Source of the DNA: a virus
Lineage: Duplodnaviria > Caudoviricetes
DNA length: 64,000 bases
Reading direction: 5' to 3' (one strand)
IMG/VR virus record: IMGVR_UViG_3300033066_001283
Coordinates: 64,001 to 128,000 of that record
Part shown: positions 10,401 through 63,794 of the stretch, piece by piece
Position numbering within the stretch: the stretch's first letter is position 1
How the letters are laid out: each line of letters starts with the position of its first letter
Notes under the pieces: model-generated
Told to the model about the DNA's origin: nothing
Databases searched by the model: none
What the model saw: the letters and a program-made list of their open reading frames with translations, nothing else
Position numbers and translations under genes: made by a program

Positions 10401-12538
10401 GATTGAAATTCTAAAGCTACAGGCATAACAAAATCTACACCCAATAGGTTAAAGATTTCATTATTGATCAACATTAATGGTGAGCCCTTATCACCAGCAT
10501 GCGTACTTTCTTTACCTATAGTTGAGAACTTATTGAGAACTTTAGAAATTGCTCTTTCATCAAACTCTTCCTTTAAAGCTTCTAGCTTTTGTTTTGCTTC
10601 TTTACCAAAGCATTTCCCTTCAATTATAAAGTTAGCAGAGATTCCACCCATATACTGATGAATAGGAAGAGGATCATATCTATTATTAAACATAGCCAGA
10701 TTATGACCTCTGCCACCAGATATTCTTTCTACCACTATCTCATCATTAACAGTATCTGCTCCTGAGATGTTAAACAGAATTGATCTTTCAATATCATTAA
10801 TAAAACTCTCACGCAATAGTTCTGCTACATCAACATGGGATATTCCCTGTCTTTTATCAATCTTGCTAATAGCATTAGTAACATCATTTAAAAGTGTTGA
10901 ATCTTTACCATCAGTTCTAAAAACTATACCAAAATAATCCTGTGGATTCTTGGCCATATTGTCAATTTTAGGTTTAACAACATTGATCCATTCTGTGTAC
11001 CCAAGTGGTTGATCTATAGTTCCACCTAAATCACCAGAGCCAGGGGGAGTACCATTAGTAATATTATACTCTCTTAAGACTGCAGTTTGAATTTGTTCAT
11101 ATAGACTTCTAGGATCAGTGGCATTAACTTCAACTATGTTGTCTGGATCAGACTCAATAGATGCTCTCTGAATAGCTGTTGGGAATGTTTCTGAGATAAA
11201 TGAGGAGGTAACGTGTGCTGAGTTAGGTAAGAAATTACCATTCTCATCTGCATATGTCATTCCAATAAACTTAGACCATTGGACTAAACCAATATAGATT
11301 CCAGGAGACTTAATTGACCCTGTGTATTTAACCCCTCTTGCATCTTCAGTTGCAATGCCAGTAAACTGAGAGAATAGAGCTGGATCTTGAATTTTTAAAA
11401 CATAGTATTTAGTACCAAGTTTAGTATCCTTGGTCCAATCGATCTTCTTAACATTAGGAGAAGTAACGCCATTATCCGTATTTTTTAACAGGCTTTGAAG
11501 TGAAGTTAAGGTATTAAGATCAATATAGCTTCCCTTCGTATCAGCCTTATTAATAATTGTATCAATAGAATTAGCAAATCCTGGACTGGAAAAGCTAAAT
11601 GACATCTTCCCATCAAATATTGAGTTAGGAGAATACCTACTAGTATTTCTAGTTTTACACCAAAGTTTAAACAATGGCCAACATATCATATCATCCATTT
11701 TCCATCGATGAATATTCTTTTTATCATCGTGGTATGGTGGGGTATAATACTCGTAGTTAAATGGATCAAACGCAATATCAACTATGATGGTATTAGGAAA
11801 ACCATCTAATGTGGAAATAGCAAAGTTCTTAACAGCAATAGCCTTACATGGAATATCTCCTCTTTCATCCGGCTTCCCAAAGGGACCACCATCAACAGTC
11901 AAGAATGGAGTTAAGCTTATTTGTTCGAGGATTTCTTGAACAGAAGCGATCTCAGCTGGGCCATTAGCCGTAAAACTAATATTAAAAGTCTCATAGGATC
12001 TCCCTGTTCCCATTTTCAGTGTACCAACCTGCCGCATAGCAGGGGTTTCCGATAAAGAGGTTCTCCTCATCTGTTTGATGAAGTTTACATTATTTTTGAA
12101 TATCGCATACCCTATCCTAATTTCATCATCAGCAAGGGGTCTATTTGCAATTGGAGTAAAGAATGGTAAAGTAATCTTCTTATACTCTGAGTGTCCTGTA
12201 TCCGTGTCACTAAGCTTTGAGATATCTGAGAATGCTAAAATCTTAGTAACTTCTCCTGATTCATTAAAAGTTAATCTAAATTTTCTTCCGTCTGAGAAAG
12301 ACACATTTCTGGAGTCCATCTTAGACATACCATTTAACTTATAGTTTTCAGTATCAGTTAAGCCAATTTCTTTACTCCAACTTTGTGGAGAATAGCTAGT
12401 ACTAATTCTATATACACTATTGACCGCAGATACTCTAGCCCCATCAACAACATATCCAGAAATGATTGCTTGTTCTACTGAATTTTGAATACGCCATTCA
12501 ATCTTATTTAATACTATCTGAACATCTTGGTTAATCAT
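4406..12538 (-). CDS. Very large baseplate hub / tail-tip protein (2710 aa)
   Basis: The segments RLHVRMGYG...VVFNGQVVE...LTVTAVGDG and MYQGWFTMLGCASIKPRDLIEFSD...VKEVIHRMD resemble gp27/late-control-D hub folds. It lies upstream of the lysins and wedge gene. Confidence 0.6.
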   Translation of the reverse strand: MINQDVQIVLNKIEWRIQNSVEQAIISGYVVDGARVSAVNSVYRISTSYSPQSWSKEIGLTDTENYKLNGMSKMDSRNVSFSDGRKFRLTFNESGEVTKILAFSDISKLSDTDTGHSEYKKITLPFFTPIANRPLADDEIRIGYAIFKNNVNFIKQMRRTSLSETPAMRQVGTLKMGTGRSYETFNISFTANGPAEIASVQEILEQISLTPFLTVDGGPFGKPDERGDIPCKAIAVKNFAISTLDGFPNTIIVDIAFDPFNYEYYTPPYHDDKKNIHRWKMDDMICWPLFKLWCKTRNTSRYSPNSIFDGKMSFSFSSPGFANSIDTIINKADTKGSYIDLNTLTSLQSLLKNTDNGVTSPNVKKIDWTKDTKLGTKYYVLKIQDPALFSQFTGIATEDARGVKYTGSIKSPGIYIGLVQWSKFIGMTYADENGNFLPNSAHVTSSFISETFPTAIQRASIESDPDNIVEVNATDPRSLYEQIQTAVLREYNITNGTPPGSGDLGGTIDQPLGYTEWINVVKPKIDNMAKNPQDYFGIVFRTDGKDSTLLNDVTNAISKIDKRQGISHVDVAELLRESFINDIERSILFNISGADTVNDEIVVERISGGRGHNLAMFNNRYDPLPIHQYMGGISANFIIEGKCFGKEAKQKLEALKEEFDERAISKVLNKFSTIGKESTHAGDKGSPLMLINNEIFNLLGVDFVMPVALEFQSTDQQPNVWNFSFNLIDYDVALKKAERVQFLPTTFNSMNRVAEYGFNSDPNWNPILQKGLEWFSLQGALAEQEVYPDMQLPTKNELYFWVNTLRMIATEYKKNKWATVTGIEALTLKLTPEEQVIFEHCREFIERDYNLIATWDDAPSAYSQALPGARVDPDFYCYYGAKDSFQHAFHIVATDQFGKFNNVGEASGKTDKTDFYTEYSPEYGISSVEMPEYLAVNKNHIDPENTYNTRMFNADKNGDKLLVPNVKEVIKTNVTQPLDDRAVEGSWWVDLQSDAAKKSESIIIAKEADKELAKGPNANLQDPNSQSPKSNITTTRYFSYAWRSAFAKLSASAPISIPNTDRFLGIGREYAVANKEFSGLTTDGGTRKVEMSEIAKIDVSDIEKAVLSSFQSNENFNPIPDIDAGVAKRSSWVYYNAINNRWFQSGNGVDEDYKLFNRKGKEFNIDPHILRAVFLARDNYGQYRINKPNNTEAFGDFASNILIDDDTDKDVLQKGGQPAKELILDKFCERYKAYQSYFNNIPSIVLMATMMWFDPNCSTYRDENEIKSSIIEDIKNKIKDYDLSDKGANIIAEILNTYDRAGVYVDVFYSTYINLCRVYGAYVDFEAKDPYFFGLSPLVLFTDDYALEDKPKYFDTSFFPSKKRGKIYTDTAKAYPIYADAAAAGLNNDQDPKEALRILISQTKKLKSALDPSTEVAIGGALLDMQKYSPFGRLVGAFPSFSVLIINEGWYWNAGNKRLWDHFYTRTGIASIDVFKSRHQAASTCSVTFSNMFYYLTSYAQQEAMQQDLFVRKNERTGKEISDGALVNVVRHLFSEVIVKDVPQEVIKIWRENQLKQLVLTTGARLHVRMGYGCDASALPVVFNGQVVEAPVQEGYLTVTAVGDGAELEKQATTKLTQANGSYAYSDGAFGGAGKDPSSIVVESILGPNIVTNIFGGNFRDFSSGIAHFGEVYYGQNFLHHPAEMQINIYSSAPSKLEQGLPAFEMFNFVLGLTTYNNDRNLFSVDVHEPSPWKVIEVCRRATHEFVASPEPFCTRSTLFFGKWWYPYHYTYDESILSVPAENLKLDTNVKTPNSNDGPNGTPVSKGYIPFIPFSTLTGMPFSDANPPTNQEAIKALGSEIDTIAALLPRIYSNIENAQKGKEYLYVNLVRVTSNEIADYTNSIDAFGGGSLSRNARQLASLTTIFNLQLKHGQILKYDSRSKSLTLQGEVSYGGTNVLSNGAVTEATATTKVDGKELVLPDFDKIDFVRDVNELVTHLKYKPYMQMYIASSAINLLDVNIIADSSNMATDAIGLHSWSGFGTKEAAVKTITYSLDCDITQSDRKTMLVDTGINLTQTQAGWEGIANTLAKGISYLPVVGGLLAKEAQEYFSASPTTPAINNGVINALLDSVKEMYQGWFTMLGCASIKPRDLIEFSDHIYDLRGPVLVKEVIHRMDAQTGFITMVSPDAVVLPANSLVGKSHVISLSTFGTRLMHYMAMRIMWASTVGQIKGKLNRKAQFKKIGNTNQYDALLHKAKNTNIKDQYLVEYKKASKEALEKKLKVLTDKDKSKLKAEDRVKITKQIDELRQKSIEIDRATEIKAVADINTGIGISPTVKAANVEDQVLFDIIKADERLKIKVDEYKAQAKRGVFRTLFNSEAEALEAINKYEASEKSLFITLNQGGIVTANPYSADEIAEASKWIQTNLSNDGIKNIVGNAAKEAEMSRNIGIIRTSDIAVRDAKEGEFLISSGTNVRTALQILKDSGAELAMVNRIGNAQTPLQIVEESFSLLTFPLKAAGQVITTAEDAAVSESSVVGGIKKIYKWQEEVRAMAKEGEGIDKAAARARALEKVTTDLKKLATDSWEIGKDLYAGGRLVGYAGPQAIISFAIDATKLIIGNALIEGFNARLAARKVGIIYPLRAGRLPFTAGIRGHQGAVVGDTPSWADKLIHNYLDPSAGAGWIPFASATIASFLGVKPPEFVEHPADRAYMKSLEEDNETNAGIQRSH

Positions 12539-13260
12539 AATTTAAAGTGTCGGGGGTGATTGTAGTGGGTGTTAAGAGAACCTGTAAAAGTAAGATCAAG
12601 ATTCTTATTTCCTAGTACTAATGGAGAGTGATTATTACCCTTACCACTCTTTCCAGCATCATTATCTAAAGTAGAGGACATTCCAGCTGGATGTAAATAT
12701 GCTTTCCTTCTATGAGCTTTATCCATAACACGCTTAATAGTATTATGAATAATAGGAACAGACATAGCTCCTACTAGTAGACCAAACGTTTTAGGTGATA
12801 ATAATCTTGCAACATTGGGATTATTCTTTCTAAGTTTGGTAACTGTATCTTTCATCTTTAAAAGTTCAGTAGAAAGAGTTTTGCTTGCTAAATGCCTTTC
12901 TAGGCTCTCTAATCCTAGTCCCCCTAGATTCTCTGCCCCCTTAGCTATAATGCTTGCTCCTGCGGCAACTAGGGCAGCGGAAGACACTATTCTACCACTG
13001 CTCATAGACCTTGAACCTTTCTTAGTATCCATAGCTGCGCCTAACGCAAAATAGCCAGCGAATAAAGGAGCAGGAGTATTTAGAAATACGTGTGAGGCAA
13101 TAGTAACTCCACCAAATAATGCCATAGCAGAGTTGTAATCTTTATTGTGGCTGTAGAATGGATGTTTTCTTACATGGGTTCTATGAATCTTTGGAGCAGC
13201 AATCTTTGATACAGTTCCTGCGGCTAGAAATCCTAGCCCTGCCATCATCAATCCTTCCAT
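12535..13260 (-). CDS. Gly/Ala-rich hydrophobic protein, possible internal (ejection) virion protein
   Basis: 241 aa with several hydrophobic segments; coupled to both neighbours. Confidence 0.4.
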   Translation of the reverse strand: MEGLMMAGLGFLAAGTVSKIAAPKIHRTHVRKHPFYSHNKDYNSAMALFGGVTIASHVFLNTPAPLFAGYFALGAAMDTKKGSRSMSSGRIVSSAALVAAGASIIAKGAENLGGLGLESLERHLASKTLSTELLKMKDTVTKLRKNNPNVARLLSPKTFGLLVGAMSVPIIHNTIKRVMDKAHRRKAYLHPAGMSSTLDNDAGKSGKGNNHSPLVLGNKNLDLTFTGSLNTHYNHPRHFKL

Positions 13261-53561: not shown

Positions 53562-53958
53562 ATTTATAATTAAAAACTTTTAAACTGAGCTGTGGCTGGA
53601 ACAAACTTAGTATTCTTACTGGTGAATCGAGGTTTTCAAGCTCATACACCTTAAAAAATGTCCCTTTTATCGGCCCATAGCAGTTTTTCCACTCTGTATT
53701 TACTACTCTATGGAAAGCACAATCTCTTAAATAGTCAATTTCATAGAGTTTCGATCCTACTGGGGTAAATTCCTTCATGTGCTTACCCGATAAGATCTCT
53801 CTAAAATCGTCATCATCGAACCCCATGATTCGTACGCTCATATCAATTAGCGTATGTTGAGCAACTGGGTGCTCATAGGGGTATATTAAGTTGAATTTAG
53901 GAAATCTTTTTAATGCATCAAAAGATTCCGCTGGTAGGGGCACATCTATAGACTTCAT
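53536..53958 (-). CDS. Hypothetical protein
   Basis: 140 aa, SD GAGGTG. Confidence 0.5.
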   Translation of the reverse strand: MKSIDVPLPAESFDALKRFPKFNLIYPYEHPVAQHTLIDMSVRIMGFDDDDFREILSGKHMKEFTPVGSKLYEIDYLRDCAFHRVVNTEWKNCYGPIKGTFFKVYELENLDSPVRILSLFQPQLSLKVFNYKYGKARSDS

Positions 53959-54003
53959 AAGTACACCTCTATTGTAGGAAAGTCCTACCTAACAAGTAGA
54001 GGT

Positions 54004-57000
54004 CTATTTAGAGACAATAGCCTTAAATACTTCTCCTAACTTAGCAAAAGCCTCTTTTAGAATTGGTGAAAGGTGTGATGCTGACTCTACCCCACCAATC
54101 AATCTTCCTTCTACTGCTGCCATTCTTTCAGCGTAACCAGCTTGGTATCTTTCTAATCCAGCTGCAACTATTTTTCTACCATCAATCTCTTCACCACTAT
54201 CTAGAAAGAGTTTTGCAGGATCCATTCCTGCAGCTACTGCTTCTAATAGTGTTTGACCCACATGTTCTACCAGATTATTGACCATTCCTTCATCTAATCC
54301 TTGTTCTACCCACATTCTAGCCATCGGCCTTAACTGATCAATGATGGCTGTGCCTTGGTATCTTCTAATAACTGATTCTGTCTCTTCAGTAATAGCAGTT
54401 TCAGTAGAAGTTAATGATCTTCCTGCCTGAACATCCATCCAGAGTCTACTTTTATGCTTATAATTAATTCCATCTTTACTAAACTCAAAAAGCTTTTCTT
54501 CACGGTGTGCAACCAACCGATTATAGTTCTCAGCAGAAGAATCTTTCATGTAAGCATTGAAAGCCTGTTTGGCTGATTCTGAAGTGCTTGCAATATCTGC
54601 TAAAACATCCATCAAGCCCTTATCTTTAGCTCCACCAATTCCTTGAAAGATAAGATTTTCACTTGATTCAAATGAGAAAGGTAATCCTTGATCTTTAATT
54701 GCACCATTAGTACTTAACCATTTACCTAATTCTTTAGTGAAAGAGTAATGTTCTCCCTCATACTCTATTCCAGTTTCCGCTTTAGTGGGCATTTGAAGCG
54801 TTCTTCTATGCTTAGCCTCCCAAGATGAGGATACACCAGAAGAGACGCCTAGAAAGCCCTCTGAGGCGTCAAAAACCCTATTTACAGAAGACTCACCATA
54901 GTGTTTATAGATTGAACTGGCCAACTCTGGCTGAAAATCCTCCATATCTGTTAAAACTAATCTCGCTTTGACGAGTGGGCTATTAGTAAGCTGCTTCATA
55001 GTCTTCATAGTAGCACTCTGATTATTGATTGTTAAGTAGTCACCAATAAATGGTTTCTCACCATGAAGGGTGCCTAATAATCCAATTCCAAACCTAAGTC
55101 CTTCCTTATCTAAATTTCGCATCATTAAGGTTCCAACTAGAACTTTATCTAAATCCTTATCACTATTAAGCTCATTAACTGCCCCAAGTGCCAAACTAAT
55201 GTTCTCATCCCCATAAACTCCATAATTTTGCTGAAGATCTAATAATCGGTAATGCCTAAAACGCATAACATTAGTCTCAGGTGTAATAGCTAATCCACCA
55301 TCAATTTGGGCTACAACATCACTAATTCCTATTGCACCTATTGTTCGTTTTACTTCACCCATAGCCTCTCTATATACATAAGCTCTATCAGCATAGTCAG
55401 CCATACCCATAATGTATGCAATGTATTCCCGATCATTAGGATTCGCCTTTAATGTATTTCTTAGTGTGGCTGGATCAGTCCCCATAGCTGTAGCTGCTTT
55501 AATTAAAATATTATTGTGCTCGAAAATGTAACTAGCAGTAATATTTTCACTTTCACCAAACAATCTATTTGACTCAAGACCGATGCCTTTCTTAGTGAAT
55601 AATGAACCAATGATTTCTGGTAGGTACTGTTCCGGTTGATCTTCTACAACTTCCCCAAACTCATTTAACCTTCTTCTAATTGGTAGGTAGATGCCGTGTT
55701 GTATATTTTTAAATTTTGCATTAGTTGCTTTTCCAGTAGGATCTCTGAAAGTAACTAATTTACCTTCTACCCCGTCAATAGTGTGGAGCTCAAGGAAACT
55801 GAAACGCTCATTTATGTTCTTTCTAGTTTTAGTAAACTGTTTGTAGAATTCAAGTGCTCGTGCAGATGCTTCATGAACTGGGGTTCTAACATCTTTAGTA
55901 TCCCCATAACTTCTTTTGAAAAACATCTCTTCTGGGCGGAAAGCTCCAATCAACTTTCTAGCAAGTTGTTCCCTTGGAAGAATAGCTTCGTTAGCAATAA
56001 CAGCTGCCTGTACCTCTAATGGCATTTGCTCAAAATACTTTCGTTGGCTGGTGCTTTTACCAAATACCTCATCTAATGCATAATCATGAGCAACCATAGC
56101 TTGTAGCTGATGGTACATGGGTGATGAAGCTGTTCCTTTCTGGTTAAGACCAAGATTTTCAATAGCCATCGCCACAAGCCCTTTATCACGAAGTGGATCA
56201 AATAAAGCAAATGCCCCAGTTAAAGCATTATCATCCTCCATCAATTGTGCATACTTATCTGGGTTATCTCTTGCTAACCTGGCTAGAAAATCTTTGAAAG
56301 CAATTAAGTTGGTAACATTTACCTGGTTAGTTCCGAGGCCTACTACTGTATCTCTAGCTCCAATCTCCCACATCTTTGTGAAAGCCTTAACCTGGTTCTC
56401 TTTAGTACTGGTAAAATAATATTCCAGATCTTTTGAAATACCTTTAAACACTGGGTGGTTAGGTCCAACCTCTTTTATTCCCCGAAGAATCTTGTGTGGA
56501 TCTTGCTTATCATAGTGTATAACGTAGGTTAAGTTTGGTGAGTGTGCTGGGAACTTGGTAACAAATCCTCCAAGGCTAATATTACCATTACCCACCCTCT
56601 GCTTCATCTCTTCAGTTTTTCGCTGAAGCCATGCGTTAAAATTAGCTTCAAATGTTGTAACAGATACTTGGTCACCATCAAAGTCACGGTAGAGTAGGTA
56701 AGAAGCTTTTGGGTTCATCATAACAACCTCTTGCCCTGTATTCTCATTCACCTGAATCCTAATATGTATCTCAGTTCCAGGTGGAATAGGAAGCTTCTCA
56801 GTATCGGCCCAGCTTCTTCCCCTCAGTTTTGGGTCCATAGGGAGCGTAGGATCCCAAAATAGCTTCATCATTCTAGTGTGAACATTATCAGCACCAAACG
56901 CTTTACTTAAAAAGTGTTTAACTGCAGCAGGACCTTCTATTCTACTTTGATCATTTCCTAGCTTTGTTAAATTCCTTCCAGCTATATTCCTTAACTGGGC

Positions 57001-57213
57001 TAGAATCGCAGTGTTATCATCAGCAGAATTAATTCCCGCCTTCAACTGTCTCCAAGCGAAGTCAAAGCCAGCTGCAAAAATCTCCCGTTGATTCTGAACA
57101 AAGGGTATTGCTTCAAATTCGCCCCTTATCTCATCAGCAGAAAATAATCTCCCTGAAGAATCTTTAAACCATGTATTAGGTTTAAATGTATACCTTCTAG
57201 CAATCCAGCTCAT
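54004..57213 (-). CDS. Putative phage double-psi beta-barrel RNA polymerase (beta'-like catalytic motif)
   Basis: VVMMNPKASYLLYRDFDGDQVSV (DFDGD at aa 177-181, nt 56671-56685) parallels the beta' pattern xxLNPxxxxxYNADFDGDxMxV. Possible beta-like LHGEK at aa 716-720. Confidence 0.65.
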   Translation of the reverse strand: MSWIARRYTFKPNTWFKDSSGRLFSADEIRGEFEAIPFVQNQREIFAAGFDFAWRQLKAGINSADDNTAILAQLRNIAGRNLTKLGNDQSRIEGPAAVKHFLSKAFGADNVHTRMMKLFWDPTLPMDPKLRGRSWADTEKLPIPPGTEIHIRIQVNENTGQEVVMMNPKASYLLYRDFDGDQVSVTTFEANFNAWLQRKTEEMKQRVGNGNISLGGFVTKFPAHSPNLTYVIHYDKQDPHKILRGIKEVGPNHPVFKGISKDLEYYFTSTKENQVKAFTKMWEIGARDTVVGLGTNQVNVTNLIAFKDFLARLARDNPDKYAQLMEDDNALTGAFALFDPLRDKGLVAMAIENLGLNQKGTASSPMYHQLQAMVAHDYALDEVFGKSTSQRKYFEQMPLEVQAAVIANEAILPREQLARKLIGAFRPEEMFFKRSYGDTKDVRTPVHEASARALEFYKQFTKTRKNINERFSFLELHTIDGVEGKLVTFRDPTGKATNAKFKNIQHGIYLPIRRRLNEFGEVVEDQPEQYLPEIIGSLFTKKGIGLESNRLFGESENITASYIFEHNNILIKAATAMGTDPATLRNTLKANPNDREYIAYIMGMADYADRAYVYREAMGEVKRTIGAIGISDVVAQIDGGLAITPETNVMRFRHYRLLDLQQNYGVYGDENISLALGAVNELNSDKDLDKVLVGTLMMRNLDKEGLRFGIGLLGTLHGEKPFIGDYLTINNQSATMKTMKQLTNSPLVKARLVLTDMEDFQPELASSIYKHYGESSVNRVFDASEGFLGVSSGVSSSWEAKHRRTLQMPTKAETGIEYEGEHYSFTKELGKWLSTNGAIKDQGLPFSFESSENLIFQGIGGAKDKGLMDVLADIASTSESAKQAFNAYMKDSSAENYNRLVAHREEKLFEFSKDGINYKHKSRLWMDVQAGRSLTSTETAITEETESVIRRYQGTAIIDQLRPMARMWVEQGLDEGMVNNLVEHVGQTLLEAVAAGMDPAKLFLDSGEEIDGRKIVAAGLERYQAGYAERMAAVEGRLIGGVESASHLSPILKEAFAKLGEVFKAIVSK

Positions 57214-57218
57214 TAGTT

Positions 57219-57249
57219 AAAATAGAGGCAAAACTAATTCAAGTGTCAA
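57219..57249 (-). promoter_or_regulatory. Possible sigma70-type promoter for the RNAP-like gene (leaderless)
   Basis: TTGACA-19 nt-TATTTT-5 nt-ATG, with no SD. Confidence 0.45.
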
Positions 57250-57330
57250 AAATTAGAACACCCTTCCACCCCAATTAATTTCTCTGTTTCAGAAATAGGT
57301 ACTGTCAAAATAATAATTTCCTAAAACTCA

Positions 57331-58448
57331 GAATTAGACCCACCCCCCATTGAATTAATCCTTCTTAATACTCCAACCATAGTAAGTTGGAAACTTACCC
57401 TTCTTCAATTGATACAAGCCATTTCTTGGAATATTAAATTGTTTAGCTAACTGAGAGATATTATTAGTTACATGCTCATTACCGTTGGGATCAATGAATG
57501 TGGGGTGTATTGTCTCTCCATTCTTTATTCTTACAGAGTTTTCAGCATTTATTTTCGCTATTCTTTCACTCTTTTCAGATGAGTAAATCTTTTCTTTTGC
57601 TGCTTTACGAGGTTTAGGTTGCCATATCTTTTCTCTTTCACCTGGAGGTAAAGAATATCCCTTGTAGGTTTTGCGCGTCCCATTAATAACTCTTCTTAGT
57701 CTTTTTTGCTCTAAATTATTCTCTTCACAAAATAAACTTAAATTTCTAACTGTAAAAGTGGTATTCTGAAAACAAAGTTGATACTCTTTTGAGATTGGTT
57801 TATTTTCCCTGTATTCTCTGGAAATATTTTCTTTTTTATATTTCTCTCGACTCTTAATAACCTTATCAGAAATAGTATACCGTCTGCCGTAATCTTTACT
57901 TCTCTCTAAAGATTCTAATCTTTTAGCATTTCGATATTCAATCCTTTCAGAGTCACTCATACTAGATAGCTTCTTGCGTTTTTCTTGCCCTTCCTTAACC
58001 TTAGTACTAAATTCAGTTTCAGAAATTCTAATTTTATAATTAGGTAGTAGTCCTGGCTTTAGTAGTATATTATACATTTTGTCTTTAGTACATAGACTTA
58101 AGTAATATTCTTCTTTTTCGTTCAGCTGCTCAATCGAGCACTCCTCAATAATTCCCGGTTTAAAGTATTCTTTATCTTTATTCCATGCGTTCTGAAGATA
58201 TGCATTAGAGTGTACCCCTTTCAATAAATCACATCTGTGATCTGTAAATCGTCTAGGTATATGTTTAGATTGTCCTATATACATTTTATCATTTAATGTG
58301 TTGTATAGACAATAGATGCCAGAAACATTTGGAACTTCCTTCCATTCGTATAATGAGATATTCATATAAAAGAATGTAGATCATCCCCTAAAAATCAAGG
58401 CATGTCTGAGTTGGTAATAGACGGGGGCATAGTCGGAATTAGACCCAC
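57331..58448 (+). repeat. 13-bp direct repeat GAATTAGACCCAC flanking the GIY-YIG gene
   Basis: Exact copies at 57331-57343 and 58436-58448. Confidence 0.75.
57355..58365 (-). CDS. Free-standing GIY-YIG homing endonuclease
   Basis: SGIYCLYNTLNDKMYIGQS...RF..H...H.N..LQNAW..., LNEKE, YNI; two NUMOD1-like C-terminal HTH units. Confidence 0.88.
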   Translation of the reverse strand: MNISLYEWKEVPNVSGIYCLYNTLNDKMYIGQSKHIPRRFTDHRCDLLKGVHSNAYLQNAWNKDKEYFKPGIIEECSIEQLNEKEEYYLSLCTKDKMYNILLKPGLLPNYKIRISETEFSTKVKEGQEKRKKLSSMSDSERIEYRNAKRLESLERSKDYGRRYTISDKVIKSREKYKKENISREYRENKPISKEYQLCFQNTTFTVRNLSLFCEENNLEQKRLRRVINGTRKTYKGYSLPPGEREKIWQPKPRKAAKEKIYSSEKSERIAKINAENSVRIKNGETIHPTFIDPNGNEHVTNNISQLAKQFNIPRNGLYQLKKGKFPTYYGWSIKKD

Positions 58449-58538
58449 GAGGGTCGTTTTTATGGGCAATCATGCCTATAGGGAATCATCCCAGTGATGC
58501 TGTGCTCAACAGCTTTTACCTTTGTAGGAGGTAATATC

Positions 58539-58877
58539 GTGTTTAAAATGACAGTAGCCACTATGGCAGCGATCATTCTGCGTAGTAAGGACATGGCAAG
58601 TCCTTCCATCGCTCTCCGTTCAGGCGAGCTTGTCCTCATTGATGGAGATATCAATGACGAGAACCTTCTCATCGTGGATGCGGTGGACACCTCGTTCTGG
58701 GAACAGTGGTTGCCCAGTAATATCCCGTTCCGACATACCTTTGGAACGTTCGAGTCTCAAATGAAGCGGTACGTGAGCCGCTTCAATCGAACTGGTGTAA
58801 AGAATGTCCTCATGGCATTGTCGTATCATGAGGTGCAGTTGAAGAGGAGGTATCCAGAAGAACTGTTTAAAGACTGA
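58539..58877 (+). CDS. Early-region hypothetical protein
   Basis: Start reassigned to GTG 58539 behind AGGAGGT. Confidence 0.65.
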   Translation: MFKMTVATMAAIILRSKDMASPSIALRSGELVLIDGDINDENLLIVDAVDTSFWEQWLPSNIPFRHTFGTFESQMKRYVSRFNRTGVKNVLMALSYHEVQLKRRYPEELFKD

Positions 58878-58944
58878 GCCGAAAGCCAGGGATTTCTCCC
58901 TGGTTATACATAGGGTATGCTCCTATGTACTGATGAGGCAGCAC
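58878..58944 (+). ncRNA. Hammerhead ribozyme, type II (copy 1)
   Basis: GCC-GAAA-stem III GCCAGGGA/TTTC/TCCCTGGT-T-A^-stem I TACATAGG/GTATGCT/CCTATGTA-CTGATGA-GGC. Loop I TGCT can pair with the 3' AGCA. Predicted cleavage after A58906. Confidence 0.9.
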
Positions 58945-58981
58945 TCTCACAACGACCTTTACCTTTGTAGGAGGTAATATT

Positions 58982-59296
58982 ATGCTATTGACATTCACCA
59001 TTCCATCTACTGGGCACATACGCTCAGTGGATCTGAGGGACGAGCTTGTGCATGAGTACAAGCTTTCAATCCAAGAGATGAGCAGGTACTTTAGCCCTGC
59101 TCTTGACAGACAGCGGAGGGCAGCACACAATAAGGTGGCTGCTTCTCTTGTCCCCATTCTCAAGGAAGAACTTCCTGAGGAGGATGATGCTTCTCTCACT
59201 CAAGAGGCCCGTAGGATAGTGACGGGTTTTTTAGAAGAATCCCTGACTGGCCGGAGTATGGTCAGGGAGCTCCTGGACTCCGGTTTACTGCGTTAG
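58982..59296 (+). CDS. Early-region hypothetical protein
   Basis: 104 aa, SD AGGAGGT. Confidence 0.7.
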   Translation: MLLTFTIPSTGHIRSVDLRDELVHEYKLSIQEMSRYFSPALDRQRRAAHNKVAASLVPILKEELPEEDDASLTQEARRIVTGFLEESLTGRSMVRELLDSGLLR

Positions 59297-59308
59297 TTTG
59301 AGTATTGC

Positions 59309-59357
59309 GGTGAACAGTGCCTAACTGTATGGTGTGTAAATCACCTATCTGTAGGAG
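59309..59357 (+). ncRNA. Unclassified two-hairpin intergenic motif (copy A)
   Basis: GGTGA-ACAG/TGCCTAA/CTGT-AT-GGTG/TGTAAAT/CACC-TATC-TGTAGGAG. Confidence 0.55.
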
Positions 59358-59368
59358 GTAAGTAAATC

Positions 59369-59635
59369 ATGCGTTCAATGAACAAAGGAAGTTGGGTGTA
59401 TTTACCAACTCTTATCACTCTTTCGATGCTCCAGGAGCAGAAGGACAGACACTACACCTTCCACCCAGAGGTCTTCTTCGAGGACCTCAATCCTGGGTGG
59501 ACTGAGCAGGTTCTCGGGTTCATGGCGAAGAACCCAACGTGCTCGATGAGCATCGATGCACGGTATCATCAGGACAGCTACTCTGATGGGGAAACCCTTA
59601 GAGGAGAAGGCATGGTGTATTGTCAGACTAGATAA
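59369..59635 (+). CDS. Early-region hypothetical protein
   Basis: 88 aa, SD AGGAGGT. Confidence 0.7.
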   Translation: MRSMNKGSWVYLPTLITLSMLQEQKDRHYTFHPEVFFEDLNPGWTEQVLGFMAKNPTCSMSIDARYHQDSYSDGETLRGEGMVYCQTR

Positions 59636-59636
59636 T

Positions 59637-59703
59637 GCCGAAAGCCAGGGATTTCTCCCTGGTTATACATAGGGTATGCTCCTATGTACTGATGAGGCAG
59701 CAC
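59637..59703 (+). ncRNA. Hammerhead ribozyme, type II (copy 2)
   Basis: Part of a 77-bp exact repeat of copy 1 (58878-58954 = 59637-59713). Stem II can extend to TGCC/GGCA. Predicted cleavage after A59665. Confidence 0.9.
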
Positions 59704-59737
59704 TCTCACAACGTTTGTTACCGTAGGAGGTAATATA

Positions 59738-59899
59738 GTGAATAGAAGAACAAAACTCATCATCGTTAGTGCTATCATAGTAGCACTATGCCTGCTGGAT
59801 GCAGCAGGTGTCTGCATCACTGACCCTCGCTTTGAGGCGGGGAAGCAGGATAGGGCTCAAGCAGCCCGCATTCTTGAGGAAGCAAGCACAACACATTGA
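59738..59899 (+). CDS. Small membrane protein (53 aa)
   Basis: Not in the track; GTG behind AGGAGGT; MNRRTKLIIVSAIIVALCLLDAAGVCITDPRFEAGKQDRAQAARILEEASTTH*. Confidence 0.65.
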   Translation: MNRRTKLIIVSAIIVALCLLDAAGVCITDPRFEAGKQDRAQAARILEEASTTH

Positions 59900-59907
59900 T
59901 TGCTTGT

Positions 59908-59956
59908 GGTGAACAGTGCCTAACTGCATGGTGTGTAAATCACCTAATTGTAGGAG
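59908..59956 (+). ncRNA. Unclassified two-hairpin intergenic motif (copy B)
   Basis: Near-identical to copy A; CAG/TGCCTAA/CTG, GGTG/CACC, TGTAGGAG. Confidence 0.55.
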
Positions 59957-59963
59957 TAATAAA

Positions 59964-60407
59964 ATGAAAACATTAGTAGTAGCAGTGTGGGCGTGGCTTT
60001 CGGCCAAGTACCAAGGTCTTGTCTATGGCAGGACTGAGAAGTGTGAGTGGTGCGGGGAGCCGTGCGTTCCCAACGCTCACCATATGTGTGTGCACTGCCT
60101 TGAACAGGAGTTTGGCACTCCTGAAGACTGGCAGGCAGAGTGGGAAGAGGACTCGCTTCGACAGAAGATCGAGGACGTTCTGGATCCTGAAGAGTTGGAG
60201 CATTCTAATACTCAGGATCAAGGAGAGGGATGGGGAGTCCACACCTGCTGCAAGTGTGGTGGAAAGACTCATCCTGATGGTCCTGCATCTGTGTGGGATC
60301 CTTTCACCGATGAGACTTGGTGTGAGGATTGCTGGTATAAGGAGAATCCTCCCAGCGAACAGCTCATAAAGAGTCTGCCGAAGTGTGAGGTAGACTTCGA
60401 AGACTAA
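59964..60407 (+). CDS. Acidic protein with two C4 zinc-finger-like units
   Basis: Start reassigned to ATG 59964 behind AGGAG; CEWC...CVHC and CCKC...CEDC. Confidence 0.7.
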   Translation: MKTLVVAVWAWLSAKYQGLVYGRTEKCEWCGEPCVPNAHHMCVHCLEQEFGTPEDWQAEWEEDSLRQKIEDVLDPEELEHSNTQDQGEGWGVHTCCKCGGKTHPDGPASVWDPFTDETWCEDCWYKENPPSEQLIKSLPKCEVDFED

Positions 60408-60416
60408 TGAGTATAT

Positions 60417-60463
60417 GGTGGACGTGCCTAACGTAGCAGAAGGATTATCTGCATTTGTAGGAG
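60417..60463 (+). ncRNA. Unclassified two-hairpin intergenic motif (copy C, divergent)
   Basis: GGTGG-ACG/TGCCTAA/CGT-A-GCAGA/AGGATTA/TCTGC-ATT-TGTAGGAG; both stems differ from A/B yet still pair. Confidence 0.55.
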
Positions 60464-60473
60464 TAGTAAGAAC

Positions 60474-61832
60474 ATGAAACTGTTAAGTTTAGAACAAGTG
60501 TGGAAGATGCGGACGAAGCATCAGTTGGAGTGGTTGAACTCAATCCCTGACCTGAAGACGAAGAAGTGTCAGCGTGTTGTTGTAAGAGGAAACAAGACGA
60601 TTTCAATCGTCGTGACCATGGGATTCCGAGATTCGGAATCAAAGGTCCGTCTATTCAAGATCGAACACAGATTTAAGATTGATGGTACCTACCTTGGCTC
60701 GTACTTTGAAGGAATAGATCCTTCTGCCTTCACGCGTCAGGTTCTGAGGCTGGTGAGATTATCACTCCCAGGGTTGCACTCAAAAGTGCAACATGGGTAT
60801 GTTATGGATAAACTCTGCCACCCATTCGATCTAGCGGATTTTTCCAAGGAAATTGGTATCAGCGCCTGCCCGTGGGGTGTTAAGACCGTTCTGCTGTGGC
60901 AGGATCTTGGATTCTATACTAGGTATAGTGTCAATGATCTCTACCTTCCAGTTAAACATGGATTGTTACGCAATCTAAAACGAGAAGATCATGGAGGATT
61001 AGAGTACATGATGCGAAAGGGAGGCAAGTATATTCGCTCCCTAGGAAAACAAGGAAGTATTATGGTATGGAGAGCTGTAACAGCAATGGATGCTGCTAGA
61101 ATCTCTCCCGGCCTCCCCTTCCGAGTGGCCACAATGTGGTTAACTGTAGTAAGCCATAGACGGAACGAAGAATCTCTCCCAATATGGGCAAGGTTTATCT
61201 TCCTTCACTGGGAGCAGAACTACAGAGCCATTCTTCGTAGAACGAAGAATGCAGCTGGAGTGCATCGCTCACGAGATATAGATGCAGTGCTCAATGATCT
61301 GTATGATTACTTGGGTGCACATTACGAAGAAGCTCTACCAGATGCTGCATTCGAGGTCTTGTTCCAAAGATCAGAAGCGTGGCATCGCGTGTTAAGAGAG
61401 AATCGGCGTGCTCTTAATGATATAGACTATGGTCCAAATCTTGAGAAGGACACTGCTCTTCCTTGGAATGGATTGGAAGGAACATTCTCTATTGGCGAAT
61501 TCGAGTTTACTCGAATTACAACGTATGGAGATCTCTTGGATGAGGGCGACATTATGCGGCATTGTGTAGCTACATATGTCAGGTATTGTCTAACAGGCAA
61601 TACATCCATTTGGAGTATGAGACTCAAGGTACTAAAGGGCAAGAAATGTATGCGTGTTGCCACACTTGAAGTAGCGCATGCAGGAGTGTCTGAGTTGCGA
61701 CAGGCTCGAACTGCCTGTAATGGCTCACTAAACGACGAACAAAGAGCCGCAACCAGAGCCTTTGTATCCTGGCTTAACAATCAACCACTTAGTGTGGGTG
61801 AGAGACTTAGAGCATTGAATGAGGTAAACTAA
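60474..61832 (+). CDS. PcfJ-like domain protein
   Basis: C-terminal ITTYGDLLDEGDIMRHCVATY...GNTSIWSMR...VATLEV...QAR..CN matches the PcfJ-like pattern. Confidence 0.75.
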   Translation: MKLLSLEQVWKMRTKHQLEWLNSIPDLKTKKCQRVVVRGNKTISIVVTMGFRDSESKVRLFKIEHRFKIDGTYLGSYFEGIDPSAFTRQVLRLVRLSLPGLHSKVQHGYVMDKLCHPFDLADFSKEIGISACPWGVKTVLLWQDLGFYTRYSVNDLYLPVKHGLLRNLKREDHGGLEYMMRKGGKYIRSLGKQGSIMVWRAVTAMDAARISPGLPFRVATMWLTVVSHRRNEESLPIWARFIFLHWEQNYRAILRRTKNAAGVHRSRDIDAVLNDLYDYLGAHYEEALPDAAFEVLFQRSEAWHRVLRENRRALNDIDYGPNLEKDTALPWNGLEGTFSIGEFEFTRITTYGDLLDEGDIMRHCVATYVRYCLTGNTSIWSMRLKVLKGKKCMRVATLEVAHAGVSELRQARTACNGSLNDEQRAATRAFVSWLNNQPLSVGERLRALNEVN

Positions 61833-62161
61833 TGAACAAGAATAAGAAGCTCCAGATGGAGCGGATCATCGCTGAGGTACGAGCAAACAAAGTGCTCGTT
61901 ATTGATGTCAAGGACTTTGAAGCCTATCGAGGTGTTGTCCGCCTTGGTACCCTCAAGGCGAGGGAAGCAAAGAGGGAGTGGAAAGCTCCCAAGTTGATTG
62001 TCAAAGCTCAGACAGCTGATCCTGAAGTTCTCAGGAAGTTGGCTGACAGAGGAGCTAGCAGAATTATCTGCTCAGTTCCCAAGAACAAGAAACGAGAGAT
62101 CATCCAGTCTCTCGTCAAGAACCCTGCACGATGTTGGGTGCAGGTAATGGAGGTAAAATAA
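61832..62161 (+). CDS. Basic hypothetical protein
   Basis: 109 aa, TAATG coupling, SD GAGGT. Confidence 0.65.
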   Translation: MNKNKKLQMERIIAEVRANKVLVIDVKDFEAYRGVVRLGTLKAREAKREWKAPKLIVKAQTADPEVLRKLADRGASRIICSVPKNKKREIIQSLVKNPARCWVQVMEVK

Positions 62162-62427
62162 TGCCACTACTCATTCAAGTGTTCAGGAAGGGGCAGAATG
62201 AGCCCCTTGCCTTGCAGGATGTTGATATGGAGGTGAGAAATCACTTCCAATATCACAAGGACCAAGAGACAAAGTTTATTTGTAGTTGGCCCTCAACTCT
62301 CACATATAGGCTTGCATTCAAGCCTATGGATGAGGTACTATCTGATCTAAGAGCAGACGGATTAGTCACAGTCGCTGAGGTATGTGAGTATATCAGCGAT
62401 AATTATGACATCAGAGTATGGAGGTAA
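62161..62427 (+). CDS. Hypothetical protein
   Basis: Start reassigned to ATG 62161 behind GGAGGT. Confidence 0.65.
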   Translation: MPLLIQVFRKGQNEPLALQDVDMEVRNHFQYHKDQETKFICSWPSTLTYRLAFKPMDEVLSDLRADGLVTVAEVCEYISDNYDIRVWR

Positions 62428-62430
62428 ATC

Positions 62431-62748
62431 ATGTGGAAATTGATCAGGATTGAGCTAGGTAGTCGAAAGACTGTCCTGCTCAAGAAGCAGTTCGCTACTG
62501 AGAGAGATGCTCAGAAGCATGCCAATCGACTCAATGGTATGTATGCCCATCGCTATGGTGATGGGTTCTACCATGTACAACTCCTATCCCCTTCTCAGTG
62601 GAGAGAGCCACAAGTGGTGAAGACCAAGTGGTTCATCGGAGATAAGACAGGGCAGATAATCGCCTCATTTGATCAGGAAGAGAAAGCTACCCAGTTCTTA
62701 GATGATAACTGGGAACAGGACTGGACCAAATGGCAGGGCCCAGCCTAG
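62431..62748 (+). CDS. Hypothetical protein
   Basis: 105 aa, SD GGAGGT. Confidence 0.65.
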   Translation: MWKLIRIELGSRKTVLLKKQFATERDAQKHANRLNGMYAHRYGDGFYHVQLLSPSQWREPQVVKTKWFIGDKTGQIIASFDQEEKATQFLDDNWEQDWTKWQGPA

Positions 62749-62849
62749 CATCACTGTTCTATTCCCCTACTGGATTAGCCTCCGGTAGGGGAACGCCTGC
62801 CGTGGATTGCCGCCTAGGTGGTGATACCAAGTTGTAGGAGATTACAAAT

Positions 62850-63089
62850 ATGAAACAGCCTATCGTAATTACAGCAGAGCGCAAAGCCGAACTGAAGAGG
62901 ATTGTCAAGCGGGCAATCGAGACCGGAGCTACGAGCTTCACCGTGAACAGCCCAGCAGAATGGACGTTCTGCGTGCGTGCTATCCAACACGAGCGGTCTA
63001 AGGGGCAGTACATCCCCAATAAGCAGATCCTTACCCGGACACAGCTCCGGGATGACGCGCTCGAAGACTTCGATTACAATCCAAGCTAG
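62850..63089 (+). CDS. Hypothetical protein
   Basis: 79 aa, SD AGGAG. Confidence 0.65.
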   Translation: MKQPIVITAERKAELKRIVKRAIETGATSFTVNSPAEWTFCVRAIQHERSKGQYIPNKQILTRTQLRDDALEDFDYNPS

Positions 63090-63098
63090 TGCGTGTTC

Positions 63099-63131
63099 GG
63101 GGCCAACCTAACGGTTGGCCCCCCTTTTCTT
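63099..63131 (+). terminator. Intrinsic terminator
   Basis: 10-bp stem GGGGCCAACC-TAAC-GGTTGGCCCC followed by CCTTTTCTT. Confidence 0.8.
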
Positions 63132-63261
63132 GTGGCCTAACAAACCTCCGGTAGACTGCCTGTTTGGTAGTTTTGGGGCTAATTACGCTCTTGTGTGGTG
63201 TTGCCACATTGGGCACGGCCTGAGGTTTGGGGTGTTAGTGCCCCCATTGTAGGAAGGTAAT

Positions 63262-63609
63262 ATGCTGAAAATTATCAAGAATCGACGTGTGCGTACAGCA
63301 CCAGTGACCAAGCCCGTAAAGCTTACCACTACAGACGAGTTTGATGCTCTAATGAGCAGACTTGAGGAGCTTTCTAAGCAACTTGTTATGCCTGCTTCCC
63401 CGAAGAACCTCACTCCTGAAGATATCAGGGAAGGGACTAAGAAGATGATGATCGGAACTCTGTTCATTACAGAGATGGAAGGCAATACGCAGGAAGAGCA
63501 GATTGCCATGTTCATCAGAATTCGCTCTCAGCTAGTTCCGTATGAGCTTGACTGGTTCAGGCTCGGAGCTGAGGCGATCATGGAATACAGACGGCTATGT
63601 TCGGCCTAG
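63262..63609 (+). CDS. Hypothetical protein
   Basis: 115 aa, SD AGGAAGGT. Confidence 0.65.
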   Translation: MLKIIKNRRVRTAPVTKPVKLTTTDEFDALMSRLEELSKQLVMPASPKNLTPEDIREGTKKMMIGTLFITEMEGNTQEEQIAMFIRIRSQLVPYELDWFRLGAEAIMEYRRLCSA

Positions 63610-63794
63610 GACGACCTGTAGACAGACGTGGAGAGTATTCACGTCCACTGACAATCAAAGAATGTGAAGAACTGATGGCATTCTTTGAGTTGGCTCTACA
63701 GCAAACTGGCATGCCACAGTTCTGGTATGCCCTTGCCAAGAAGAAGAGGGATGAGGTTATAGAGGCCTACTCCCACTTAATGGAGGCACAATGA
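63597..63794 (+). CDS. Hypothetical protein
   Basis: 65 aa, overlapping both neighbours in operon fashion. Confidence 0.55.
   Translation: MFGLGRPVDRRGEYSRPLTIKECEELMAFFELALQQTGMPQFWYALAKKKRDEVIEAYSHLMEAQ

Follow-up and report, generated by a model that had tools for sequence, protein, structure and literature searches.

The window analysed here, a 64-kb (64,000-nt) stretch of phage DNA, contains two identical type II hammerhead ribozymes, HH1 and HH2, which probably cut one long message of the phage into hairpin-capped linear pieces. The window represents bases 64001-128000 of a 150,263-bp IMG/VR virus record, which is ~80% complete according to CheckV; the phage is uncultured, has a genome of ~150 kb and encodes its own RNA-polymerase-like proteins. 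The ribozymes are located in an operon of small genes that runs rightward on the plus strand from ~58400, and the 759-nt RNA that they would release is most likely a linear two-gene mRNA. We derived this mechanism from the established chemistry of the ribozyme family and from the anatomy of the locus. The twin copies also belong to a modular system of spacers; these are repeated, and the open reading frames (ORFs) between them are unrelated.

Two identical type II hammerheads flank a two-gene segment

The elements of the operon are arranged in the order leader, ORF1, HH1, ORF2, motif A1, ORF3, HH2, ORF4, motif A2, ORF5, motif A3 and a PcfJ-like gene. HH1 (58878-58939) and HH2 (59637-59698) are both on the coding plus strand, where each begins 0-1 nt past a stop codon and lies ~40 nt before the next start codon. 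In particular, the stop codon of ORF1 (58539-58877, plus strand; 112 aa, GTG start), the first gene of the operon, abuts HH1, and that of ORF3 (59369-59635, plus strand; 88 aa, an orphan) is one base before the start of HH2. ORF2 (58982-59296, plus strand; 104 aa) is also an orphan, with relatives in other metagenome phages at 89% and 62% amino-acid identity. The initial annotation of this DNA had described two identical flanking hammerheads with cleavage sites 759 nt apart, which would excise a piece holding two complete ORFs and one copy of motif A. We arrived at the same picture: HH1 and HH2 were identical, the cuts were predicted after A58906 (A58906/U58907) and A59665 (A59665/U59666), and the RNA expected from double cleavage (58907-59665, plus strand, 759 nt) contained ORF2, motif A1 (59309-59357) and ORF3.

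Each hammerhead is 62 nt long and has the type II topology, in which loops close stems I and III and stem II is open. The 5' half consists of the 3' strand of stem II (GCC), GAAA, a 9-bp stem III hairpin and U-U-A, with the cut after the A, and the 3' half consists of an 8-9-bp stem I hairpin, CUGAUGA and the 5' strand of stem II (GGC). Stem II is thus formed by three base pairs (GCC/GGC), and four are possible in HH2 (UGCC/GGCA). In the predicted fold, stems III and I had 9 bp each. As criteria for the core we used C3-U4-G5-A6-N7-G8-A9, G12-A13-A14, an A15.1-U16.1 pair and a cleavage nucleotide H17 other than G. The catalytic core was complete in both copies (CUGAUGA, GAA, the A-U pair and A17), and the core-adjacent pairs G10.1-C11.1, U1.1-A2.1 and A15.1-U16.1 were present. 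A scan with a structural descriptor found exactly two sites in the window, HH1 and HH2, and none in 100 dinucleotide shuffles.

Both copies matched the Rfam family RF02276 (Hammerhead_II) over its full length, HH1 with 27.7 bits and HH2 with 26.0 bits. In a 1.8-kb stretch, the E-values were 0.005 for HH1 and 0.015 for HH2; for the 150-kb genome, they were 1e-4 and 3e-4, respectively; at the gathering threshold, Rfam gave no match in the whole window, and the hammerheads surfaced only under an E-value threshold. When aligned with 21 other type II hammerheads from phages and metagenomes, the two motifs kept every invariant position, and the register of stem II and the tail matched that of the other members. 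Because all invariant positions were kept, we regard both motifs as hammerheads, which may be slow. The low Rfam score is explained by AT-rich stems, by a UUA cleavage site with a G-U pair at 15.2-16.2 in place of GUC, and by a pseudoknot of 3-4 bp as compared with 4-7 bp.

The majority of type II members, though not all, have a pseudoknot of at least 4 bp between loop I and the tail 3' of stem II. In HH1, UGCU of loop I is able to pair with the tail AGCA (58940-58943), in the same register as in other members; this pseudoknot would have 4 bp if the terminal G-U pair of stem I opens and 3 bp otherwise. Nearest-neighbour folding gave stem II a probability of 0-0.22 even in uncut precursors, which is uninformative because stem II depends on tertiary contacts outside the model. 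No further hammerhead or other ribozyme was found in the window or in the 150-kb genome. The ORF1 leader (58420-58506) was considered as a decayed third hammerhead and rejected, as its local alignment was no better than that of shuffles (484 of 1000).

The DNA repeat and its natural variants

At the DNA level, the two ribozymes are part of a direct repeat (58878-58971 and 59637-59730) with a distance of 759 nt from start to start and 93% identity over 94 nt. The first 77 bp are perfectly repeated (58878-58954 in the left copy and 59637-59713 in the right copy); in the left copy, similarity runs on to 58971-58980, and the base just 5' of the repeat differs between the copies (A and T, respectively). 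The small ORFs of the operon are mutually unrelated and the repeats are confined to the spacers. Since the ORFs between the repeats are unrelated, the repeat does not represent a collapsed or duplicated block. A tandem duplication of two cassettes was likewise rejected, as ORF2 and ORF4, and ORF3 and ORF5, showed no similarity.

We retrieved natural variants of the locus through exact-protein look-ups. One of them, L040, is a separate 9,824-bp contig from the Joint Genome Institute (JGI) that is 100% identical to window positions 53931-63754, both repeat copies included. The initial annotation had raised the concern that the repeat might be an assembly artefact, which L040 makes unlikely. An artefact would mean that the true genome has one hammerhead and that strain variants were fused into a chimeric two-copy form. 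Strain variants do co-occur, as L040 and the variant L039 described below come from one metagenome, and a one-copy form was seen in L050. Against this, the 150-kb record and L040 were assembled separately and are both two-copy and 100% identical over 9,824 bp, the 77-nt repeat is shorter than a typical read, and the junction of HH1 with the ORF2 leader is unique to the two-copy form, while ORF2 needs some place in the genome. We therefore regard a chimeric origin as very improbable.

L050 is a 2,375-bp contig of Logan run SRR8942298, which is 100% identical to window positions 58374-58954 and 59637-61507, joined through a 77-nt overlap. Its gene order is ORF1-HH-ORF4, with the same ORF1 protein, and it is exactly one 759-bp unit shorter than the window, with the crossover inside the 77-nt repeat; the missing DNA unit corresponds, with a shift of at most 77 bp, to the RNA expected from double cleavage. 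Logan contigs are built at k=31. A contig from such a graph normally breaks at a 77-nt two-copy repeat, and we therefore took L050 as a real one-copy form, which it probably is. Additionally, no contig of SRR8942298 on record contained ORF3, which speaks against repeat collapse in L050. An RNA origin of L050, namely as a spliced transcript, is conceivable; the accessions of the Logan and JGI runs were mentioned in no paper from which the sample type (DNA or RNA) could be taken.

In L039, which is from the same JGI metagenome as L040, the ORF1 leader is joined directly to ORF3 at a shared 12-nt box, TGTAGGAGGTAA. This ribosome-binding-site box occurs twice on the plus strand of the window, ahead of ORF1 (58523-58534) and ahead of ORF3 (59350-59361), and the two copies mark the joint of the L039 indel. 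L039 is without the GIY-YIG endonuclease gene, ORF1, HH1, ORF2 and motif A1, and retains ORF3-HH2-ORF4-A2 at 99% identity. The more distant L030 (~85% nucleotide identity) has the order ORF4'-ORF2'-motif A, with similar short leaders and no ribozyme on either side of ORF4', and L029 has no ribozyme after ORF4'. In both, the spacer from ORF4 to the next gene has the same CACAAC...GTAGGAGGTAA leader without the ~70-nt ribozyme. The ribozyme thus behaves as a discrete module that is inserted or deleted directly after a stop codon. We also observed that the spacers past the ORF4 homologue at L030:1917-1947 and L029:76-110 have leaders of the CACAACC...GTAGGAGGTAAC kind and related ones, with no hammerhead.

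Different genes were found between the same spacers in L029, L030 and L039. As far as these contigs indicate, neither the ribozyme pair nor the pairing of ORF2 with ORF3 is a conserved unit, and among near-identical relatives, whose comparison had been proposed as a check, the two-ribozyme arrangement was not conserved. The existence of the single-ribozyme variants L050 and L039 instead indicates that the functional unit is one ribozyme between two genes. It had also been suggested that the DNA repeat could let the two-gene cassette loop out, and L050, with one 759-bp unit fewer, backs this idea: because a 100%-identical variant lacks exactly one unit, the 77-bp repeat appears to be a substrate of DNA recombination. 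More generally, the spacer modules are apparent sites of DNA-level cassette exchange.

Eight contigs (L031-L038) contained an ORF2 homologue at 62% amino-acid identity; Rfam found no hammerhead in L031, the one of these that was scanned with it, and a regular-expression scan of all eight gave loose hits that we took as chance. No close relative was found in IMG/VR through the PcfJ-like protein, the 1069-aa polymerase-like protein or the motif A pattern, and blastn against GenBank phages gave no match. A metagenome scan with a pattern of stem II, the start of stem III and the tail returned nine loci without any relationship to this phage, namely seven chance hits in other sequence and two unrelated type II hammerheads (L044 and L049).

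Probable linear processing and alternative explanations

If the hammerheads act as known members do, each would fold during transcription of the polycistronic message and cut after A58906 and A59665, respectively. The cuts would give three linear RNAs, namely the leader with ORF1, the 759-nt RNA with ORF2, motif A and ORF3, and the RNA from ORF4 onwards. Because a type II hammerhead has closed hairpins at both stem III and stem I, the upstream product should end in a 9-bp hairpin with a 2',3'-cyclic phosphate, and the downstream product should start with a 5'-OH and an 8-9-bp hairpin. Such ends should make the stability and translation of each segment independent of those of the others.

Several points weigh against this reading. 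Both copies score below the 37 bits that RF02276 demands at the gathering level. Their predicted cut site is the triplet UUA, accompanied by a G-U pair at 15.2-16.2, where GUC is the common form, and the 3-4-bp pseudoknot did not exceed what was obtained with shuffled tails (150 of 500). Perreault et al. observed a ~20-fold loss when a pseudoknot was cut from 6 to 4 bp (PMC3088659). Given this loss, the UUA site and the short pseudoknot, the ribozyme may be slow. A single transcript across the operon is something that we infer from the gene spacing and from the lack of convincing internal promoters or terminators, as a scan of the operon stretch for both gave nothing above shuffles. Finally, L050 is a k-mer-graph contig, in which collapse across the 77-nt repeat is possible.

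The initial annotation had favoured a different fate of the 759-nt piece, namely a retrozyme- or viroid-like, exonuclease-resistant circular bicistronic mRNA. In this scheme, the piece would be closed by a host RtcB or by reverse hammerhead ligation and would be useful to the phage. The chemistry of the ends is right, as 5'-OH and 2',3'-cyclic phosphate termini are established for hammerheads, and joining the ends restores an intact ribozyme; as had been proposed, the rebuilt hammerhead is a single one, identical to HH2. The piece is also unusually structured, with a minimum free energy of -296 kcal/mol as compared with -244 +/- 9 in shuffles (z = -5.6), and three predicted 6-bp helices between 58978-59001 and 59612-59637 (probability 0.89-0.97) would bring its ends within ~70 and ~30 nt of each other. 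However, much of the excess structure consists of local hairpins inside the ORFs, and end-to-end pairing was equalled or exceeded in 6 of 20 shuffles, as would be expected of any long RNA. The ribozyme halves are joined solely by the 3-4-bp stem II, to which folding of the linear piece gave a probability of 0.08. Once the piece is closed, stems I and III are still predicted as local hairpins (probability ~1), with no viroid-like alternative fold to mask them; because these stems stay local and the rebuilt ribozyme is free to cut, a circle should re-open. The piece is also largely coding (582 of 759 nt, ~77%) and not rod-like, with a median base-pair span of 21 nt.

The genomic evidence points in the same direction. 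A search for rtcB had been suggested, and no RtcB (PF01139), Rnl2-type or Rnl1-type ligase (PF09414 and PF09511) was found in the ~80% complete phage record, the Rnl1 search being one without a positive control. The ribozyme pair is not conserved, as L050 and L039 have one each and L030 and L029 have none, and no contig on record has the order ORF3-HH-ORF2. Perreault et al. sought circular products of comparable arrays and found none (PMC3088659). Circular mRNA is an old speculation, which is without support here and has several points against it. Some circularisation by a host ligase may occur, and we consider a functional circular message quite unlikely.

Another alternative is that the hammerheads are mainly selfish or structural modules of DNA and RNA, which spread or disappear along with the spacers and serve as recombination sites for cassette shuffling, and whose cleavage is weak, absent or useless. 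Such a role would be consistent with the presence or absence of the ribozyme in the same kind of spacer among relatives, with the exact 759-bp indel whose endpoints lie within the repeat, with the 100% identity of the copies despite unrelated flanking genes, and with the sub-threshold Rfam score and short pseudoknot. The core is nevertheless intact in both copies and in all module-bearing variants, which one would not anticipate in a relic undergoing decay, the hammerheads lie without exception on the sense strand, past a stop codon and ahead of the following ribosome-binding site, and cleavage has been shown for comparable phage arrays (PMC3088659). We therefore judge this alternative unlikely, and the cutting of one long message into linear pieces remains the explanation that we prefer. 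A further proposal treats the 759-nt unit as a mobile gene cassette with a circular intermediate, either an RNA circle that a host RtcB-type ligase closes and that is translated as a two-gene mRNA, or a DNA mini-circle made by recombination in the 77-bp ribozyme repeat. This is improbable; if it were true, the ribozyme modules would double as attachment sites for the shuffling of early genes.

Comparison with known ribozyme arrays and exchange systems

The twin-hammerhead layout is common and has been known in phages since 2011. Perreault et al. reported that multiple hammerheads flank single genes or short gene blocks in prophages and phages, and showed cleavage for tandem arrangements, in three cases in vitro and in one case in vivo (PMC3088659). 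They preferred processing into gene-length mRNAs as the explanation; circular or spliced products were also raised for clustered phage hammerheads, and neither was detected (PMC3088659). A 2019 review gave the same mRNA-processing reading, with the function still unproven (PMC6765202). The locus in the window shares with these clusters the type II topology, with a candidate pseudoknot between loop I and the 3' tail, and the intergenic placement on the sense strand, and its two ribozymes likewise bracket a short block of hypothetical phage genes (ORF2 and ORF3). It differs from them in its AT-richer stems, the UUA site with the G-U pair at 15.2-16.2, the 3-4-bp pseudoknot and the Rfam score below the cut-off, and in having near-identical natural variants in which one or the other ribozyme is missing.

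We also searched IMG/VR with a loose hammerhead pattern, which gave 26 loci that were then evaluated with Rfam at the gathering level; several of them carried arrays on a single strand. The largest array was found in L017 (IMGVR_UViG_3300017991_000013), where at least seven gathering-level hammerheads and two pattern matches lie on one strand within ~5.3 kb (7820-13123), at spacings of ~290-660 nt and with pairwise identities of 58-84%. L005 contained three gathering-level hammerheads, and two each were present in L022 (669 nt apart), L025 (1293 nt apart) and L011 (308 nt apart, 97% identical). HH1 and HH2 are 100% identical, whereas the copies in most other arrays examined were 58-88% identical. 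In L008, a Twister-P5 ribozyme was observed ~1 kb upstream of a type II hammerhead.

For DNA-level exchange, the closest described analogue is the PeSL system of T4-type phages, in which orphan genes are lost or gained through recombination between repeated regulatory cassettes (Arbiol et al. 2010, PMC2839356; PMC4122927) and a small DNA circle is released, which was detected by inverse PCR (PMC2839356; PMC4122927). In both systems, conserved intergenic modules flank small orphan early genes, and close genomes differ by indels or replacements with endpoints in the modules, as seen here in L050 and L039. A PeSL is composed of an early promoter and a terminator stem-loop, whereas the modules here are the ribozyme, motif A and the extended ribosome-binding-site box. 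The phage studied here is not T4-like as far as tested, and a mini-circle of its 759-bp unit would be a hypothetical counterpart to those seen for PeSLs.

Retrozymes and viroid-like circular RNAs (de la Pena et al. 2020, PMC7761336) similarly have two hammerheads a few hundred nt apart that delimit a unit, with 5'-OH and 2',3'-cyclic phosphate ends that can be joined by a tRNA-ligase or RtcB-type enzyme (PMC7761336). They are, however, eukaryotic, use type III or type I hammerheads and have non-coding rod-like units (PMC7761336), whereas the unit here has type II hammerheads, is ~77% coding and is not rod-like. Duplication in retrozymes involves the entire unit or a long terminal repeat (PMC7761336), as compared with ~100 nt of ribozyme and leader and a ~60-nt motif A in the window. 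Retrozyme circles have been seen experimentally (PMC7761336), while a circle from the window is a prediction read from the DNA. We found neither a rod-like, non-coding, masked unit nor a duplication of a whole unit or long terminal repeat, and in these two respects the locus does not fit the retrozyme or viroid-like class. Flanking self-cleaving ribozymes also give RtcB-ligatable ends in engineered Tornado-type designs, which drop the ribozymes from the product and use an added stem to hold the ends together. In contrast, the product here would retain the ribozyme halves, which would form an active ribozyme again where its ends are joined. Strategies for expressing circular RNA are reviewed in PMC4344496.

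Motif A spacers and genomic surroundings

The spacers without a hammerhead are filled by motif A, which consists of two hairpins followed by UGUAGGAG. Its plus-strand copies are at 59309-59357, 59908-59956 and 60417-60463; copy 1 lies within the 759-nt piece, between ORF2 and ORF3. Copies were also found in the relatives (L029:406-468, L030:2276-2327 and L039:7614-7690). Hairpin 1 has an invariant loop, UGCCUAA, on a stem of ACAG/CUGU in two copies and ACG/CGU in the third, and hairpin 2 is formed by GGUG/CACC or GCAGA/UCUGC. The CCUA of the loop is complementary to the UAGG of the ribosome-binding site. Motif A had no Rfam match, and its single-sequence folds were not more stable than shuffles. 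If motif A were a processing site, the 759-nt piece would be split further.

Downstream of HH2, the first gene is ORF4 (59738-59899, plus strand; 53 aa), which has a hydrophobic N-terminal stretch and relatives in L029 and L030. It is followed by ORF5 (59964-60407, plus strand), located between motifs A2 and A3, and by the PcfJ-like gene (60474-61832, plus strand) 3' of motif A3. None of the small ORFs of the operon belonged to a Pfam or PHROG family. On the minus strand, divergent from the operon, are a gene for a homing-endonuclease-like GIY-YIG endonuclease (57355-58365), which faces away from the operon start, and a polymerase-like gene of 1069 aa (54004-57213). The GIY-YIG gene is present in the window and in L040; L039 has an AT-rich 270-nt stretch in its place (L039:6600-7000). 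This endonuclease indel adjoins that of ORF1-HH1-ORF2, a proximity that would be consistent with co-conversion of flanking markers.

In the leader upstream of ORF1, a hairpin with a T run behind it (GACCCACGAGGGTC then GTTTTTATGG; 58442-58462, plus strand) resembles a terminator. The part of the leader comprising the T run and everything downstream of it (58456-58534) is 100% conserved in L039. Coding regions of the early operon folded much better than dinucleotide shuffles: z was -5.5 for ORF3 (none of 200 shuffles as stable), -3.5 for ORF2, -2.55 for ORF1 and -3.05 for the stretch 60500-61258. A control from the late region (55000-55758, plus strand, with the gene on the minus strand) gave z = 0.0.

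Implications for phage hammerheads

What phage hammerheads that lie between small early genes are for has been asked since 2011, and the present locus gives no answer. A circular RNA, if one were found here, would be the first natural circular mRNA made by ribozymes in a phage; the present evidence makes such a finding unlikely. The locus does provide an unusually clean natural comparison, with both ribozymes in the window and L040, one in L050, the other missing in L039, and none in L030 and L029. According to this comparison, the ribozyme operates as an individual module placed between genes, and the pair is incidental. The comparison shows further, at the level of the genomes compared, that the identical ribozyme copies would also serve as DNA recombination sites for the gain and loss of gene cassettes.

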